A stretch of 64,000 nt of DNA from a virus: positions 5,417 to 69,416 of the IMG/VR virus record IMGVR_UViG_3300044638_004427, one strand, 5' to 3'. Shown one piece after another: positions 971 through 26,692 of this stretch. The translations under genes and the position numbers were made by a program. The notes beneath the pieces were generated by a model. That model was not told the origin of the DNA, made no database searches, and saw nothing but the letters and a program-made list of their open reading frames with translations. Each line of letters opens with the position of its first letter. Position 1 is the stretch's first letter.

Positions 971-1903
971 ATGTGTAAAATTATGGTGATGGCTGGAGTT
1001 AATAACGCTAATCGTAAACTTGCATGGGAGTTCACTAAACAAATGGCTATGCAAATGTCTCCCGGTAATAATGATGGTTTAGGGTATGCAGCTGTAACAG
1101 CCGAGGGTGAATTGTTTGGTGAACGTTGGCATGTAAATTCAGAAGCATTCGCTAATCGTCCAGCTGCTGAAGTACCTTCATCCGAAGAGGTTAAAATTAT
1201 TCGTAGTTTTGATGGTGTCCTTACTCATACACAAAAGCCTGTGCGTTATAATAAATTCGGTAGCATCAACGAGGATGCAATGGTTGGCATTACATTGCAT
1301 ACTCGCATGGCTACCAGTGGTAAACAATTTATTAACACTCATCCTTTCGTTCGTGGTAAGACTTCGCTCATTCATAATGGTGTTATTGGTAACGCTGATA
1401 GTCTTGAATTGATTCAGTCAACGTGTGACAGTGAGGCAATTCTTAACCTGTATGTTAAGCATAACGTTTCAAACAATATGCAAGCCATTCAGAAAGTTGC
1501 ACACAAGTTGTCAGGTTATTATGCTTGTGGTGTTATCACTGACACCAAACGTTTCGGTCCAGTCATTGACGTATTCAAAGATGATCGTGCTCGTTTGTCT
1601 GCTGCCTTTATTCGAGACATGGGTATCGTTGTGTTCAGTACTGTGATGGACGACATTGAAACTGTTTGCAACAAGATGGGTATGGAGATTGCATATAAGT
1701 TCGGTGTTAACAGTGGTATGTTACTCAGACTTAGCGCATTGTCTGGTGCCCCTCTTGCTGTGCAGAAGTTCAAGCCTGTATTTAAACACACCGAAACTTC
1801 TAAGGGTAAGAAACCTTCTTGGAGTTTTTCGACGGACGGTACATATAGTGAAGACGAAACAACGTGGTCTACTGTAAATAGTTTGAATGCCTGGAGGAAA
1901 TGA
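971..1903 (+). CDS. Class II (Ntn) glutamine amidotransferase
   Basis: N-terminal MC nucleophile; DGLG, HTRMAT, NTHPF, HNGVI and CDSE motifs; RBS GGAG. Confidence 0.88.
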   Translation: MCKIMVMAGVNNANRKLAWEFTKQMAMQMSPGNNDGLGYAAVTAEGELFGERWHVNSEAFANRPAAEVPSSEEVKIIRSFDGVLTHTQKPVRYNKFGSINEDAMVGITLHTRMATSGKQFINTHPFVRGKTSLIHNGVIGNADSLELIQSTCDSEAILNLYVKHNVSNNMQAIQKVAHKLSGYYACGVITDTKRFGPVIDVFKDDRARLSAAFIRDMGIVVFSTVMDDIETVCNKMGMEIAYKFGVNSGMLLRLSALSGAPLAVQKFKPVFKHTETSKGKKPSWSFSTDGTYSEDETTWSTVNSLNAWRK

Positions 1904-2021
1904 TTATGGAATCTTTTGATCTTGACCAAAGAGTATTTGTTTGTGTTCATGGTAATGACATTGAATGGTATTGTGATGATTGTGAAGAGTTAGTTGAACA
2001 ATATGTTAAGGAGAATGAACA

Positions 2022-2240
2022 ATGAAACAGGATGTTATTATTGGATATAACAAAGGTGAGCCTGTTATTGAAGAGGGTGTGTTAATTAAAACAGCCGACC
2101 CAACCATTACCGGGCGCATCTTTGAAATAGATGGTAAGTATTTTGTTAAGGGTAAAACAGACGAGCTACAATCTAAATGGTTTAATCGTTTGAGTGAAGC
2201 CATACAGTATTGTCAGCCTAAAAAATATAGCTGGAACTAA
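2022..2240 (+). CDS. Hypothetical protein
   Basis: ORF with AGGAG RBS in the co-oriented early cluster. Confidence 0.6.
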   Translation: MKQDVIIGYNKGEPVIEEGVLIKTADPTITGRIFEIDGKYFVKGKTDELQSKWFNRLSEAIQYCQPKKYSWN

Positions 2241-2386
2241 TGTGTTAAAATCATTGTTGTTTACTGTCGTGCTGCCTGAGCTATACAATATACTTTACTT
2301 TATTTTCATCATGATGTTTAGCTTGGGCAGCTTGTTGTTGTTGTCTTTGATTCACCTTATGTTTATTTAACTAACTGGAGGTTGGT

Positions 2387-2590
2387 ATGTACTCGGTTGA
2401 TGTTACCTATTTGAGTAACGAAATTCTTACAGACGAATATAATTTGGAGTTAGATGATAAAGACTTGAGTAGTTTTTTAAATATGCTAAATAAAAAGTAC
2501 GCTCGATTGTATAGTGTTGAGTATAATAAACATACAGTGTTTGCTTTTACTAGGGATACGGTTAAAGTTGTAATCAAAGTTTACCACTAG
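2387..2590 (+). CDS. Hypothetical protein
   Basis: GGAGG RBS upstream. Confidence 0.6.
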   Translation: MYSVDVTYLSNEILTDEYNLELDDKDLSSFLNMLNKKYARLYSVEYNKHTVFAFTRDTVKVVIKVYH

Positions 2591-2753
2591 AAAGGATTCA
2601 CGTGTTATATTTACTAGGTCTTATACTTATTCTAACAACATTCAATTCAGTAACATTACGGTTTTATCTTTATGGTTTACTTTATTGCATTTGTTTTGTT
2701 GTTGCTTCTCCTTTTGTTTTGTATTTAATCTTTTCATTCGCAGGGAGTAAATA

Positions 2754-2981
2754 ATGTTAAACACTTACGATATTTATTTAAATGGGTACGGTCATTACAA
2801 AGTCGATGCTTCCATATACAGGATACCAATGAGTGATGATATGGAATGCGAGGTTGAAGTTGTGAAGGTAAAGAAGTTCGATGATCTTCTCGAAGAATAT
2901 GCAGCGTGTGATGTTACCGATGAAGAAATGAATTTGATTGAACGAGAAGTCGCCATTCGATTCTTTAATAACTTACACTGA
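2754..2981 (+). CDS. Hypothetical acidic protein
   Basis: GGGAG RBS upstream. Confidence 0.6.
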   Translation: MLNTYDIYLNGYGHYKVDASIYRIPMSDDMECEVEVVKVKKFDDLLEEYAACDVTDEEMNLIEREVAIRFFNNLH

Positions 2982-2987
2982 GGTTGT

Positions 2988-3347
2988 ATGCTTAAATTTA
3001 TTTATTATCCAAAGAGTAGAAAAATTGTTTATCTTAAATCAAAGAAACGTGTAACCTTTCGTCACGTGTATGAAATGTCAAAACAGAATAACCAAATTGA
3101 AATCGTTGAGGCATATACACTGAAGAACATTACAGATGAAATGATGAATAGGTTTGTTAGATGGGGGGCTAACCCACCCTCTGATGAATTGAATACCGAT
3201 GTGTATGGACCAGCTACTCCACTAAATGAAACTAAAATATACAGATGTAATCAGTGTGATACCCCAACACCAAATCGTTTTAAGTGTCAGAATTGTTGGG
3301 ACCAAGTTACAGATAATTACGAAGATGAACTTCTTTACATGTTGTGA
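2988..3347 (+). CDS. Putative DNA-binding protein: PhaR-like N-terminal domain plus C-terminal zinc finger
   Basis: N-terminus follows the PhaR pattern (YPKSRKI...VTF...IEIVEAYTLKNIT); CNQC...CQNC at the C-terminus. Confidence 0.5.
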   Translation: MLKFIYYPKSRKIVYLKSKKRVTFRHVYEMSKQNNQIEIVEAYTLKNITDEMMNRFVRWGANPPSDELNTDVYGPATPLNETKIYRCNQCDTPTPNRFKCQNCWDQVTDNYEDELLYML

Positions 3348-3701: not shown

Positions 3702-4162
3702 GAATATTAAGGTATCTTTTATTTCTTGCGCTGCTTATTCCATATAACTCAGCGACAAGTAGTTATTCAGATAGAACACTGAATGGTATTTATCGAGCTA
3801 AAGCCAAACAACATAACGTTAGCTATGAAGTGTTACGTGCTATCTGTGAAGTCGAAAGTAATCATAATGTTAAACTTAAAAAGGTATGGGATGGAGGGTC
3901 ATATTCATATGGCATATGTCAAGTAAAGCTGGCAACAGCTAGGGCAATGGGATTTAAAGGAACCGACAAACAATTATCTTCACCAGATGTCAACATTGAA
4001 TACGCAGCTAAATACCTTGCCTATCAACTAAAGAGATACAAAGGCAATTATGAAAAAGCTATTGTATCTTATAATCGTGGTAGTTATAGTAATGAAGATA
4101 AGAGAAGTTACTCAGGTAAAGTTGCTATCTCTTTCCTCTTGTATAAACTGAAAGGAAGATAA
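3698..4162 (+). CDS. Lytic transglycosylase (SLT domain) with N-terminal signal or anchor
   Basis: AICEVES (catalytic Glu), GICQV, NIEYAAKYL and SYNRG motifs; hydrophobic N-terminus. Confidence 0.88.
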   Translation: MRILRYLLFLALLIPYNSATSSYSDRTLNGIYRAKAKQHNVSYEVLRAICEVESNHNVKLKKVWDGGSYSYGICQVKLATARAMGFKGTDKQLSSPDVNIEYAAKYLAYQLKRYKGNYEKAIVSYNRGSYSNEDKRSYSGKVAISFLLYKLKGR

Positions 4163-5381: not shown

Positions 5382-5587
5382 CGGAAAAGATTATTTTTAC
5401 AATAACAACCATTTTTCTTGTTTTAGTGTTAATTGCAGTTGGATTAATCTCGGAGTATGCAGACAAACTTTCTTCATCTAAAGATAAAATCGAGTCAACA
5501 TATCTAGGTGAAGTTGAAAAATGTTCTTTGTACAAGATAAAAGTGAATAGGATTCCACCAACATTACTTTGGAGATGTCATGACTGA
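5378..5587 (+). CDS. Small membrane protein
   Basis: N-terminal hydrophobic helix; ATGA overlap with the previous gene. Confidence 0.55.
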   Translation: MTEKIIFTITTIFLVLVLIAVGLISEYADKLSSSKDKIESTYLGEVEKCSLYKIKVNRIPPTLLWRCHD

Positions 5588-24838: not shown

Positions 24839-25135
24839 ATGGATAATCTGATTAATTTAGGTAACTTTAAAAAAAATAAAGAAAAGGAAAAAATTCTAGA
24901 GAAATCAGAAAAAGCTGTAGATGAAATGAAATTAATTCTACAGATATTAGATTTAACTATAACTGGTCTTAGTCATTTTACAAAATATGTAGTTGTAACG
25001 GAATGTATCTCTGTGTTAGAAAGTAATAAGATTCTTCTTCAGATACATCTTAAAAAATATAATAAAGCAATGGATAAAATAAAAGAAGATATTAAAAATG
25101 GCAAACTGGAAGAAACTGGTAAAGAGAATACCTAA
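24839..25135 (+). CDS. Hypothetical protein
   Basis: Operon ORF. Confidence 0.55.
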   Translation: MDNLINLGNFKKNKEKEKILEKSEKAVDEMKLILQILDLTITGLSHFTKYVVVTECISVLESNKILLQIHLKKYNKAMDKIKEDIKNGKLEETGKENT

Positions 25136-25409
25136 TAAAGTTCAACTCTCTAGAAAAGGAGAGTATGAAATTGTATGGGTAGAATCATTTAAAGAAGATG
25201 ATGTTGTCGGTGAAACAAGATTTGACCGAAAACAAATTGCTATTAAAGACAAGATGTCTGCAAAAAATACAGTCATCACTTATTTACATGAAGTAACTCA
25301 TGGTTTATCAGCAGAACACGATGTACAATTAACAGAAAATCAAGTACTAGCAATAGAAAAGGGCTTGTACTATCTTTTAAAAGATGGTAATATTTTTAAA
25401 AAGGATTGA
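25098..25409 (+). CDS. Small HExxH metallopeptidase-like phage protein
   Basis: GET....QI.I...TYLHEVTHG...E.QV pattern. Confidence 0.65.
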   Translation: MANWKKLVKRIPNKVQLSRKGEYEIVWVESFKEDDVVGETRFDRKQIAIKDKMSAKNTVITYLHEVTHGLSAEHDVQLTENQVLAIEKGLYYLLKDGNIFKKD

Positions 25410-26071
25410 CAATGAAGAAAATTTTAATTTTAGGCGACTCACACTTACCATATACAGACTTTGATGTAATTGAACAAGCACACGACTTTGCTAAAAAATT
25501 TAAACCAGATCTAGTTATTTCAACTGGAGACATGACTGACCAAAAGTATTGGAGCAGGTTTCCTAAATCACCAGAAGATGACGGTGGATTACTGGAATGG
25601 GAAAAGGTGTTGGAAGGAGCAAAGGAATTTGCTAAGATGTTTCCCAAGATGATTATCCTTAACTCAAATCATGATCGTCGTTATGCAAAGAAAGCAGCTG
25701 AGAGTGGCATCCCTAAAATTATGATTAGGACACTTTCAGAACTCATTCCCAATAAAGGCTGGCAATGGCATCTTGGACCTAATCCTTACATCGTTGATAA
25801 TATCGCCTTTATGCACGGGGATGAACTTCAGGGCGGAGTAAAAGCCAAAGCAAACGTACTAGGGATGAATGTTGTACAGGGACATTCCCACAAGGCAGAA
25901 TTACACTACGTCAATACATTCAACAAAAGCGTATTCGCAATGGACGTAGGTTGTACAGTAGACCCTAAAAGCGCAGCGTTTGATTATGCAGCTAGTTCAT
26001 TAACAAAAGTTTGGGTAGGGTTTGGATTTATTGAAAATGGTATTCCTCATCTAGTACCGAAGAAAAAGTAA
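25406..26071 (+). CDS. Calcineurin-like metallophosphoesterase
   Basis: GDSH, GDMTD, SNHD, MHGD and GHSH motifs. Confidence 0.88.
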   Translation: MTMKKILILGDSHLPYTDFDVIEQAHDFAKKFKPDLVISTGDMTDQKYWSRFPKSPEDDGGLLEWEKVLEGAKEFAKMFPKMIILNSNHDRRYAKKAAESGIPKIMIRTLSELIPNKGWQWHLGPNPYIVDNIAFMHGDELQGGVKAKANVLGMNVVQGHSHKAELHYVNTFNKSVFAMDVGCTVDPKSAAFDYAASSLTKVWVGFGFIENGIPHLVPKKK

Positions 26072-26072
26072 T

Positions 26073-26285
26073 ATGAAAACTAAATATTTATTAATGATCT
26101 TTGATGAAGATAACACTCTACTAGGATACACCAGTTATTTGTTTAACACACAAAAACAAGCAAAAAAATATGTAAAATTATTAGATTCTACCGGTAGAAA
26201 AAATGTTTTAGCGCCATTGAGAGTATTAGACACAAAAGAAATTAATAATGAAATAAAAAAATTTTCACAACTTGTTGGGCAGTAG
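26073..26285 (+). CDS. Hypothetical protein
   Basis: Operon ORF; its stop codon lies inside the 5' tRNA fragment. Confidence 0.55.
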   Translation: MKTKYLLMIFDEDNTLLGYTSYLFNTQKQAKKYVKLLDSTGRKNVLAPLRVLDTKEINNEIKKFSQLVGQ

Positions 26286-26673
26286 CTCAGTTGGTATAAA
26301 TAATATGTTTTGTAAAAAACATGGAGAAATCAAATCAATAAAAGTAAAAGATAGAAAACAGAGATGCTCTAAATGCGCAATAGATGCCGTTTCTAAAAGA
26401 AGACAAAAAATAAAATTGTTGGCAGTAGAATATAAGGGTGGAAAATGTGAAAAATGTTTCTATAAAAAAAGCATAGCAGCATTACAATTCCATCACTTAG
26501 ACCCAGCTAAAAAAGATTTTGGCATCTCCCAAAAAGGAGCAACAAGAAGTTGGGAAAAAGTAAAACTAGAATTAGATAAATGTATCTTAGTATGTGCAAA
26601 TTGTCATGCTGAAATACATGAAGAACTAAAATTAACCGAGTGGTCGTAGGTTCGAACCCTACCTGCCCAGCCA
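26276..26673 (+). pseudogene. Interrupted tRNA (Asn-like): 5' piece 26276-26296, 3' piece 26632-26673, HNH ORF between
   Basis: TGGGCAG-TA-GCTC-AGTTGGTA ... TTAA-CCGAG-TGGTC-GTAGG-TTCGAAC-CCTAC-CTGCCCA-G-CCA; perfect 7-bp acceptor stem and 5-bp T stem. Confidence 0.85.
26305..26649 (+). CDS. HNH endonuclease inside the tRNA shell
   Basis: GGKCEKC...ALQFHH.DP..K...KCILVCANCHAEIH; stop codon TAG falls in the T stem. Confidence 0.88.
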   Translation: MFCKKHGEIKSIKVKDRKQRCSKCAIDAVSKRRQKIKLLAVEYKGGKCEKCFYKKSIAALQFHHLDPAKKDFGISQKGATRSWEKVKLELDKCILVCANCHAEIHEELKLTEWS

Positions 26674-26692
26674 TTAACCAAAGGAGAATAAA

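Follow-up and report, generated by a model that had tools for sequence, protein, structure and literature searches.

A stretch of 64,000 nucleotides (nt) of viral DNA (IMG/VR record IMGVR_UViG_3300044638_004427, positions 5,417 to 69,416; hereafter the window) carries a transfer RNA (tRNA) gene for asparagine in two pieces, with an open reading frame (ORF) for an HNH endonuclease between them. The locus is probably a defunct tRNA-Asn(GUU) gene, interrupted when the gene of a free-standing HNH homing endonuclease became trapped at a break within the enzyme's own target. A new RNA device or mechanism is not indicated.

The 5´ fragment (TGGGCAG-TA-GCTC-AGTTGGTA, 26276-26296) comprises the acceptor 5´ strand, U8 and A9, the 5´ strand of the D stem and the D loop. 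The 3´ fragment starts with the TTAA of the anticodon loop and runs through the 3´ strand of the anticodon stem, the variable loop, the T arm and the acceptor 3´ strand to G73 and CCA. The acceptor strands of the two pieces pair at 7/7 positions. Between them, 335 nt stand in place of exactly 13 nt (tRNA positions 22-34), and this insert consists of an 8-nt A/T leader followed by the HNH ORF minus its native last codons. The ORF opens with ATG at 26305 and closes with TAG at 26647-26649, a stop that falls in the T stem, on its 5´ strand (GTAGG, 26646-26650). C-terminal comparison with relatives (alignment A2) places the end of the native HNH sequence at about ...HEEL; the final 5-6 codons plus the stop come from the tRNA 3´ fragment. 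ARAGORN called 0 tRNAs and no transfer-messenger RNA (tmRNA) in the window, RF00005 had no match across the whole 69,416-base record, and Rfam gave neither a tRNA nor an intron (RF00028) match in 25000-28000 at E<=10. The split gene is the only tRNA gene of this phage.

Two sister phages, located through the neighbouring phosphoesterase gene, show other states of this locus. In L023 (phosphoesterase 89% identical at the protein level), an intact tRNA-Asn(gtt) called by ARAGORN lies between the same neighbours at 3914-3989, and the HNH gene is absent. The L023 tRNA is identical to the window pieces at 21/21 and 40/42 positions, with both mismatches in the 3´ strand of the anticodon stem, and it carries exactly the 13 nt that the window has lost between the pieces. 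L024 (86% protein identity) has neither tRNA nor HNH at the locus. The presence of the HNH gene varies at this position, as it occurs in the window and in L105 (described below) and is absent from L023 and L024. The runs in which the record occurs point to lake water as its source. Contigs of four runs were aligned to 26000-27000, including those of X2, X3 and X4, three lake metagenomes other than the likely source. A 159-nt contig of X4 joins 26296 to 26632 by 13 letters and represents an uninterrupted allele; its short side has just 23 nt and its upstream context differs, and it therefore belongs to another genome in that lake. Contigs with 0 differences bridge the junctions in X3 (record 7, 26000-26646), X2 (record 2, 26333-27000) and X4 (record 13, 26150-26451, and record 15, 26492-27000), and misassembly is excluded by these contigs of three runs. 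Contig depth rises about tenfold at 26612-26679 (T arm and acceptor) in X2 and X4, reaching 39-59 in X2, because more abundant lake organisms share the tRNA-Asn T-arm sequence; their flanks differ.

These comparisons bear out the anatomy put forward in the original prediction, which was made from the letters of the window alone. It had described tRNA positions 1-21 and 35-76 around a 114-amino-acid (aa) HNH ORF with its stop in the T stem, and the coordinates agree. The acceptor stem, T arm and CCA are flawless as it stated (7/7 pairs, and 58/58 bases as in L023 outside the anticodon stem), the gap that it put at roughly 13 nt is exactly 13 by both L023 and the X4 contig, its tRNA-Asn assignment matches the L023 tRNA-Asn(gtt) at 21/21 and 40/42 bases, and the ribozyme core that it did not see was not found by Rfam at E<=10. 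The intact tRNA-Asn that it proposed to look for in related phages is present in L023 at the same locus, and the misassembly that it considered is contradicted by the bridging contigs of X2, X3 and X4.

Table 1. Features of the split tRNA-Asn locus and of related intron-containing loci (window coordinates unless a locus is named).
Feature	Coordinates	Strand	Evidence
tRNA-Asn 5´ fragment, positions 1-21	26276..26296	+	21/21 identical to intact L023 tRNA-Asn(gtt)
Inserted DNA, 335 nt	26297..26631	+	L023 comparison; X4 contig skips the same interval
HNH endonuclease ORF, 114 aa	26305..26649	+	phrog_2255 match
tRNA-Asn 3´ fragment, positions 35-76	26632..26673	+	40/42 identical to L023
Cassette common to window and L105, ~97% identity	26073..26639	+	alignment A3, per-segment counts
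ORF of 70 aa, function unassigned	26073..26285	+	ORF list
dUTPase gene with Shine-Dalgarno sequence (downstream neighbour)	26693..27145	+	Pfam PF00692, E 4.9e-27
Intron-bearing tRNA-Asn genes (metagenome loci)	L113:1391-2018; L123:1381-2010; L114:1019-1660; L119:1038-1670; L126:1363-1990		
ORF-less intron loci	L111:987-1312; L116:957-1281	-	

A second copy of the architecture was observed in L105, a 3.4-kb metagenome contig that has the same 70-aa ORF, 5´ piece, HNH gene (96% protein identity) and 3´ piece. The cassette common to the two genomes differs at 17 of 567 nt, whereas its flanks differ at 36/72 and 38/87 positions on the two sides (about 45-50%). Within the cassette, 7 of 203 nt differ in the 70-aa ORF (5 synonymous and 2 non-synonymous by codon reading), 1 of 21 in the 5´ piece (G19 to T) and 9 of 335 in the insert, where the native HNH part has 6 synonymous and 3 non-synonymous changes. 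The 3´ piece differs at 5 of 42 positions, 2 of them in the acceptor strand, and its divergence from L105 compared with that of the insert gives a Fisher p of 0.013. The cassette is therefore shared between otherwise diverged backbones, with a mosaic boundary inside the tRNA 3´ piece; this boundary is the one indirect sign of site-specific cleavage and biased inheritance of the gene. Acceptor pairing in L105 is reduced to 5/7, with A6.C67 and G3.G70 mismatches at which the other strand is unchanged. In the minimum-free-energy fold of the window RNA (26276-26673; z -4.0), the T arm and all 7 bp of the acceptor stem are retained, whereas in L105 the end-to-end closure is lost (z -2.2) and the stem is missing from the centroid. 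The tRNA 'shell' is not conserved in this diverged copy, a comparison of a single pair in which L105 is the sole other copy.

By its sequence, the 114-aa ORF is an HNH endonuclease. It matches phrog_2255 ('HNH endonuclease') with E 9.8e-30 and, like the free-standing short type, carries a Cys-rich segment at its N terminus. In alignment A2 (the window and 13 relatives), it retains all 18 invariant columns, including C48, C51, H63, H64, C97, N99, C100, H101 and H105, and with them the H-N-H catalytic residues of a beta-beta-alpha-metal nuclease and the paired Cys (zinc) motifs; it departs once, with F at the nearly invariant G52. No Pfam match was obtained at 0.01; the HNH family PF01844 scored 15.8 bits (cut-off 21.4, E 0.016). 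An AlphaFold 2 model was predicted with a mean local confidence (pLDDT) of 89.2 and a predicted TM-score (pTM) of 0.76, and its top Foldseek matches in the PDB are HNH domains (Cap5, Gme HNH, T4 endonuclease VII and Cas9 HNH), all of them weak (best E 0.065, TM-score <=0.38). The sole match of a PDB sequence search, cytochrome c nitrite reductase (E 0.026), was rejected as a spurious CxxCH. We infer that the enzyme is still active.

The family to which this protein belongs is closely tied to tRNA-Asn. Three collection scans added 177 loci, which gave 136 unique relatives after exact-protein de-duplication; these are rows and not independent events, and the viral and metagenome collections overlap. 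Relatives detectable at the DNA level (70-75% identity) occur in widely differing phages, among them Klebsiella, Aeromonas, Listeria and Lak phages, and the HNH gene directly adjoins tRNA-Asn(gtt) in 4/4 of those opened. A tRNA was called in the locus of 105/136 relatives and lies within 200 nt in 94/136. tRNA-Asn adjoins the HNH gene in at least 51/136; the adjacency counts rest on our own ORF calls, some of them over-extended (L026, L106), and are lower bounds. Among immediate neighbours 56/138 are tRNA-Asn, compared with 26/482 of the other tRNAs at the same loci (binomial p 2e-34). Besides L105, the rows nearest to the window protein (L106, L026, L001 and L002) all adjoin tRNA-Asn, which in L026 and L106 is masked by the over-extended calls. 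In 20/136 relatives, the ORF runs into the tRNA gene that follows and stops no more than 12 nt inside it, and in L025, L079 and L172 the HNH stop is the anticodon-loop UAA. L010:2824, L014:2731, L016:2833 and L018:2773 are examples of HNH ORFs that stop on the UAG of tRNA positions 8-10, and the 70-aa ORF of the window ends on this same UAG. In L006, L007, L083, L162 and L178, tRNA-Asn flanks the HNH gene on both sides.

Several relatives lie inside tRNA genes, as in the window. A script that required an orphan T arm 3´ of the ORF and a matching acceptor 5´ strand upstream flagged 12/137 loci, compared with 0 in the reversed-acceptor control, and flanking halves therefore exceed chance. Eight loci other than the window are flanked by tRNA pieces and have no RF00028 match at E<=0.1: L105, L025, L035, L047, L065, L079/080, L172 and L176. 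The pieces are of varied extent. In L025, the tRNA is divided into positions 1-34 and 35-76, and the TAA of the loop supplies the ORF stop. In L035, the HNH gene is preceded by an orphan 5´ piece (about 20 nt) and followed by a whole, apparently chimeric tRNA-Asn. In L079/080, tRNA-Arg pieces surround a whole tRNA-Arg plus the HNH gene, and tRNA-Asn pieces surround a whole tRNA-Asn plus the HNH gene in L172 and L047 (antisense in L047). Another tRNA is involved in L065, and L176 contains several tRNA-Val pieces. The original prediction had asked whether HNH homologues are recurrently flanked by tRNA halves with covarying acceptor stems; the recurrence holds in these eight loci, and in L105 the acceptor mismatches are uncompensated. 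L142 and L145, also flagged by the script, were dropped because their 5´ parts are not tRNA-like. The L035 tRNA-Asn (1528-1605; Rfam 46.5 bits) has an unpaired anticodon stem (5´ CTCGC, 3´ TCAAT) and three acceptor G-U pairs, and it appears to be a chimera with the crossover in the anticodon loop.

The two junctions of these interrupted genes behave differently. The 3´ piece begins in the anticodon loop in 6/9 ribozyme-less loci (the window, L105, L025, L047, L079 and L172), whereas the ends of the 5´ pieces range from position 18 to position 34. This asymmetry would fit a break in the anticodon arm whose repair made use of homology on the 3´ side but not on the 5´ side.

Other relatives are carried in introns at the same part of the tRNA. 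Rfam was run on 31 of about 180 loci, so that the count of introns is a lower bound. The HNH ORF was found within an RF00028 group I intron in tRNA-Asn in L113, L114, L119, L123 and L125/126, with scores of 84.9 bits in L113, 76.6 bits in L123 and 61-86 across the five intron loci (cut-off 50). The exons of these loci form a complete tRNA-Asn, split between U35 and U36, and the intron ends in G. ARAGORN called no tRNA at the intron-bearing loci L113, L123, L114, L119 and L126. In L111 and L116, a group I intron that lacks an ORF occupies the same tRNA-Asn site and the HNH gene lies alongside on the other strand. The RF00028 search that recovered the introns of all these loci is the one that gave no match around the split gene of the window.

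A FastTree phylogeny of 126 rows and 116 columns was read at its starred nodes, with FastTree support values; 11 short or stop-containing rows (L004, L017, L076, L088, L112, L130, L143, L148, L149, L152 and L179) were dropped. For the 9 rows labelled 'inside a tRNA', the tree requires 8 changes of the label. Proteins carried in introns group together as a separate clade (96), and the window and L105 form a clade (98) within free-standing HNHs that adjoin tRNA-Asn.

These observations suggest the following course of events. The DNA target of the nuclease would be the anticodon-arm region of intact tRNA-Asn genes, because the family adjoins tRNA-Asn and some members lie in group I introns at 35|36. 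The ancestor's single tRNA-Asn gene, located 3´ of the 70-aa ORF, would have been cut, and repair of the break would have copied in the nuclease ORF without homology on the left side. This repair presumably lost positions 22-34 and the last codons of the ORF, which became fused to the tRNA 3´ part, retained from the anticodon loop on. The insertion would abolish the nuclease's own target, so that the carrier would therefore be immune, and the phage would pay with the loss of a tRNA that seems dispensable because the sister phage L024 has none. A unit made up of the 70-aa ORF, the 5´ piece, the HNH gene and 8 nt from the start of the 3´ piece may later have moved or recombined into a second backbone. 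The original prediction had offered, as one possibility, a homing endonuclease that destroyed its own target, and this part of it gains support from the intact L023, the empty L024, the uninterrupted X4 allele and the family tie to tRNA-Asn.

Several points weigh against the capture of the HNH gene at a break in its target. The target and the cut site are predicted from genomic context. The pieces are flawless, with 58/58 positions identical to L023 outside the anticodon stem, which fits a recent event but could equally reflect selection to keep them. In the window (position 21) and in L035 (about 20), the 5´ junction lies in the D loop just before the ATG, a coincidence that suggests a less random process than plain illegitimate repair. 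At its 3´ end, the insertion is at most one base from the intron insertion site, and descent from an intron-bearing allele may have to be considered. Finally, the counts of relatives, de-duplicated by exact protein from overlapping collections, are not independent.

The closeness of the 3´ junction to the intron site bears on a first alternative, in which the HNH gene arrived in a group I intron at 35|36 and deletions then took the ribozyme and part of the 5´ exon. Relatives of the window protein are carried in such introns at tRNA-Asn 35|36, and the window junction is at 34|35 or 35|36, which are indistinguishable. However, the 5´ junction is in the D loop and not at position 35, a ribozyme remnant was not found at E<=10, the window HNH is of the free-standing short type outside the intron clade (96), and at least two deletions are required; we consider this origin improbable. 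Two independent deletions would also be needed if the pieces came from different copies in a tRNA-Asn/HNH/tRNA-Asn array, an arrangement known in L006, L007, L083, L162 and L178. The flanking copies differ from each other in the two loci read, whereas both window pieces are identical to the single L023 tRNA outside the anticodon stem and pair 7/7, which makes a two-copy origin highly unlikely. An assembly artefact fusing a tRNA gene with an HNH gene might be suspected from the odd structure and from a T-arm region common to abundant organisms (depth 39-59 at 26612-26679 in X2). Its probability is practically nil, given that contigs of X2, X3 and X4 bridge the junctions without differences and that L105, an independent metagenome contig, has the same architecture.

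A different kind of alternative keeps the tRNA pieces at work. The second possibility in the original prediction was that the acceptor/T domain is functional, as a tmRNA-like shell. On this view, a discrete HNH mRNA would be set free, or kept scarce, by RNase P and 3´ processing, or the shell would mimic a tRNA. In its favour, the window fold retains the acceptor stem and T arm (z -4.0), the pieces and the CCA are flawless, 20/136 relatives have their stop codon in the tRNA gene that follows, and tRNA processing has been proposed to control the expression of SegB and the T5 enzymes (PMC2330249). However, perfect stems are expected anyway after a recent event, and the helix follows by construction. 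The pieces differ greatly in extent from one to another of the 9 loci, translation of the ORF continues into the T stem, and the diverged copy L105 has a mismatched stem (A6.C67, G3.G70), the G19-to-T change and a fold whose closure is lost (z -2.2), the decayed state that the prediction itself had associated with a plain pseudogene. Its further proposal of a decoy for anticodon nucleases is implausible, because the anticodon arm lacks its 5´ half. We regard a functional shell as very unlikely. A broader form of the idea, that tRNA-processing signals serve the HNH family as punctuation, by which it defines where its own toxic message begins and ends and keeps the dosage of that message low, is likewise improbable. 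The signals may include the acceptor/T-arm helix, the CCA end, and stops in U8-A9-G10 or in the anticodon-loop UAA; if such punctuation existed, the split tRNA of the window would be a cassette for RNase P and 3´-end processing around a nuclease mRNA. A dead tRNA gene split by the captured endonuclease remains the preferred explanation.

Free-standing endonucleases in phage tRNA clusters are already established, and the locus shares features with several known systems. As in tmRNA, the 5´ and 3´ ends could pair as an acceptor/T-arm helix around an ORF; unlike in tmRNA, there is no ARAGORN tmRNA call, the pairing is not conserved in L105 and the ORF is an ordinary nuclease gene and not a tag. 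An intron-borne endonuclease that homes to a tRNA anticodon region resembles the intron-borne relatives in tRNA-Asn. It differs from the window in its tRNA and in its self-splicing intron, by which the tRNA stays functional, whereas the window has no ribozyme. That endonuclease also belongs to a different nuclease family. Insertion of a homing endonuclease into a protein gene occurred in phage Aeh1, whose ribonucleotide reductase gene is split in this way. 'Fractured genes' likewise have a homing endonuclease ORF between two gene pieces (PMC2677866); these and the Aeh1 case are protein genes whose pieces cooperate or are joined by split inteins, whereas the window has lost 13 nt that include part of the anticodon. 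In models of invasion and collaborative homing, the site at which an intron inserts is the target of a free-standing endonuclease, and the endonuclease gene is carried into this target or next to it by illegitimate repair (PMC3984707, PMC2790892). L111 and L116, with the HNH gene beside an ORF-less intron, and L113 and its like, with the HNH gene in the intron, fit both stages of the invasion models; in the window, in contrast, the gene landed in an exon, there is no intron to splice out, and the target gene is lost. The arrangement of L111 and L116 resembles 'collaborative homing'. According to a 2014 review, all phage introns then known were in protein genes (PMC3984707).

The closest free-standing counterpart is T4 SegB, a GIY-YIG endonuclease in a tRNA cluster that prefers a site in the T2L tRNA-Asn gene (PMC2330249). 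SegB is widely co-located with tRNAs and drives tRNA-segment amplification (PMC13096335). It is similar to the window HNH as a free-standing endonuclease gene among phage tRNA genes with a tie to tRNA-Asn, and it drives inheritance and rearrangement of the tRNA region. The two differ in family (GIY-YIG as opposed to HNH) and in position, as SegB lies between tRNA genes and the window HNH interrupts one. SegB recognition is centred on a T-arm motif, whereas the context of the window family points to the anticodon arm, and SegB neighbours are without isotype preference (PMC13096335), whereas the window family is strongly Asn-biased. HNH enzymes are also encoded by phage T5, within the region of its tRNA genes (cited in PMC2330249). 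These too are ORFs inside a phage tRNA cluster, and their expression has been suggested to be kept low when the tRNA transcript is processed; compared by description, they lie between tRNA genes and not inside one. In a literature search whose coverage excluded most subscription journals, we found no endonuclease ORF that splits a phage tRNA gene intron-free and no report of a group I intron in tRNA-Asn.

Homing endonuclease genes normally spare their host by lying between genes or in self-splicing introns and inteins. In the window and eight other loci, the HNH gene is naked inside a tRNA gene, and this phage has simply lost the tRNA. One family shows three arrangements, namely beside tRNA-Asn, in anticodon-loop group I introns and as naked insertions, which may form a natural series for the 'endonuclease-gene invasion' model of mobile-intron origin. 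The predicted cutting site of the enzyme is in the anticodon-arm region of tRNA-Asn genes. Where phage tRNAs are 'missing' or 'pseudo', or where tRNA fragments occur, some cases may be scars of endonuclease traffic, and because tRNA detectors overlook both the split cases and the intron-bearing tRNA-Asn genes, annotations should be treated with caution. The wider family pattern merits a systematic survey.

Further searches of the region gave candidates that were rejected. The Rfam matches in 25000-28000 at E<=10 were chance small nucleolar RNA, microRNA and CRISPR matches elsewhere in the region. With introns allowed, ARAGORN reported a 'tRNA-Thr(tgt), 300-nt intron' on 26276-26673, which was rejected as an artefact; the forced model takes ORF sequence for the D stem, with about 2 pairs and a long unpaired variable loop. 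The intron-mode calls for L025, L065 and L062 were likewise rejected as artefacts. A promoter and terminator scan of 25300-27300 found 6 promoter-like sites, compared with 6.0 expected, and 0 terminators; as this is at chance level, a separate transcription unit is not indicated. The metatranscriptome run X24 has one 168-nt contig at 26445-26612, inside the HNH gene and with 2 differences, which may be DNA or come from a relative. A 30-nt stretch of the 3´ tRNA fragment has a match in 0 GTDB species genomes, and therefore no host or donor tRNA was identified.

Upstream of the split gene, the 70-aa ORF draws its last codons and its TAG stop from tRNA positions 1-10, the TAG being positions 8-10. 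It has no Pfam or PHROG match and no lead in the protein atlas, and it is not present in L023 or L024. At a distance of 0.9 kb downstream is a second small HNH ORF, unrelated to the first (27582-27959, + strand, 125 aa; Pfam HNH E 3.4e-5). It is conserved in L023, L024 and L105, and it therefore looks like a fixed gene and not a mobile one.

Two tRNA-like arrangements were also observed in other loci. In Klebsiella phage KP13-7 (L001:660-970), 283 nt separate an orphan T arm from a 5´ acceptor strand that matches it, and no tRNA was called there; this may be another interrupted tRNA, unrelated to the HNH gene. L185:1620-1690 contains a permuted tRNA-like module, in which a T arm and acceptor 3´ strand are followed by a 4-nt loop and then by an acceptor 5´ strand and D arm; it has the 5´ sequence of the window tRNA in common. 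The module lies just 5´ of a 500-aa TROVE/Ro60-type ORF (1814-3316, Pfam E 8e-28), and the two together look like a phage Y-RNA/Ro pair.

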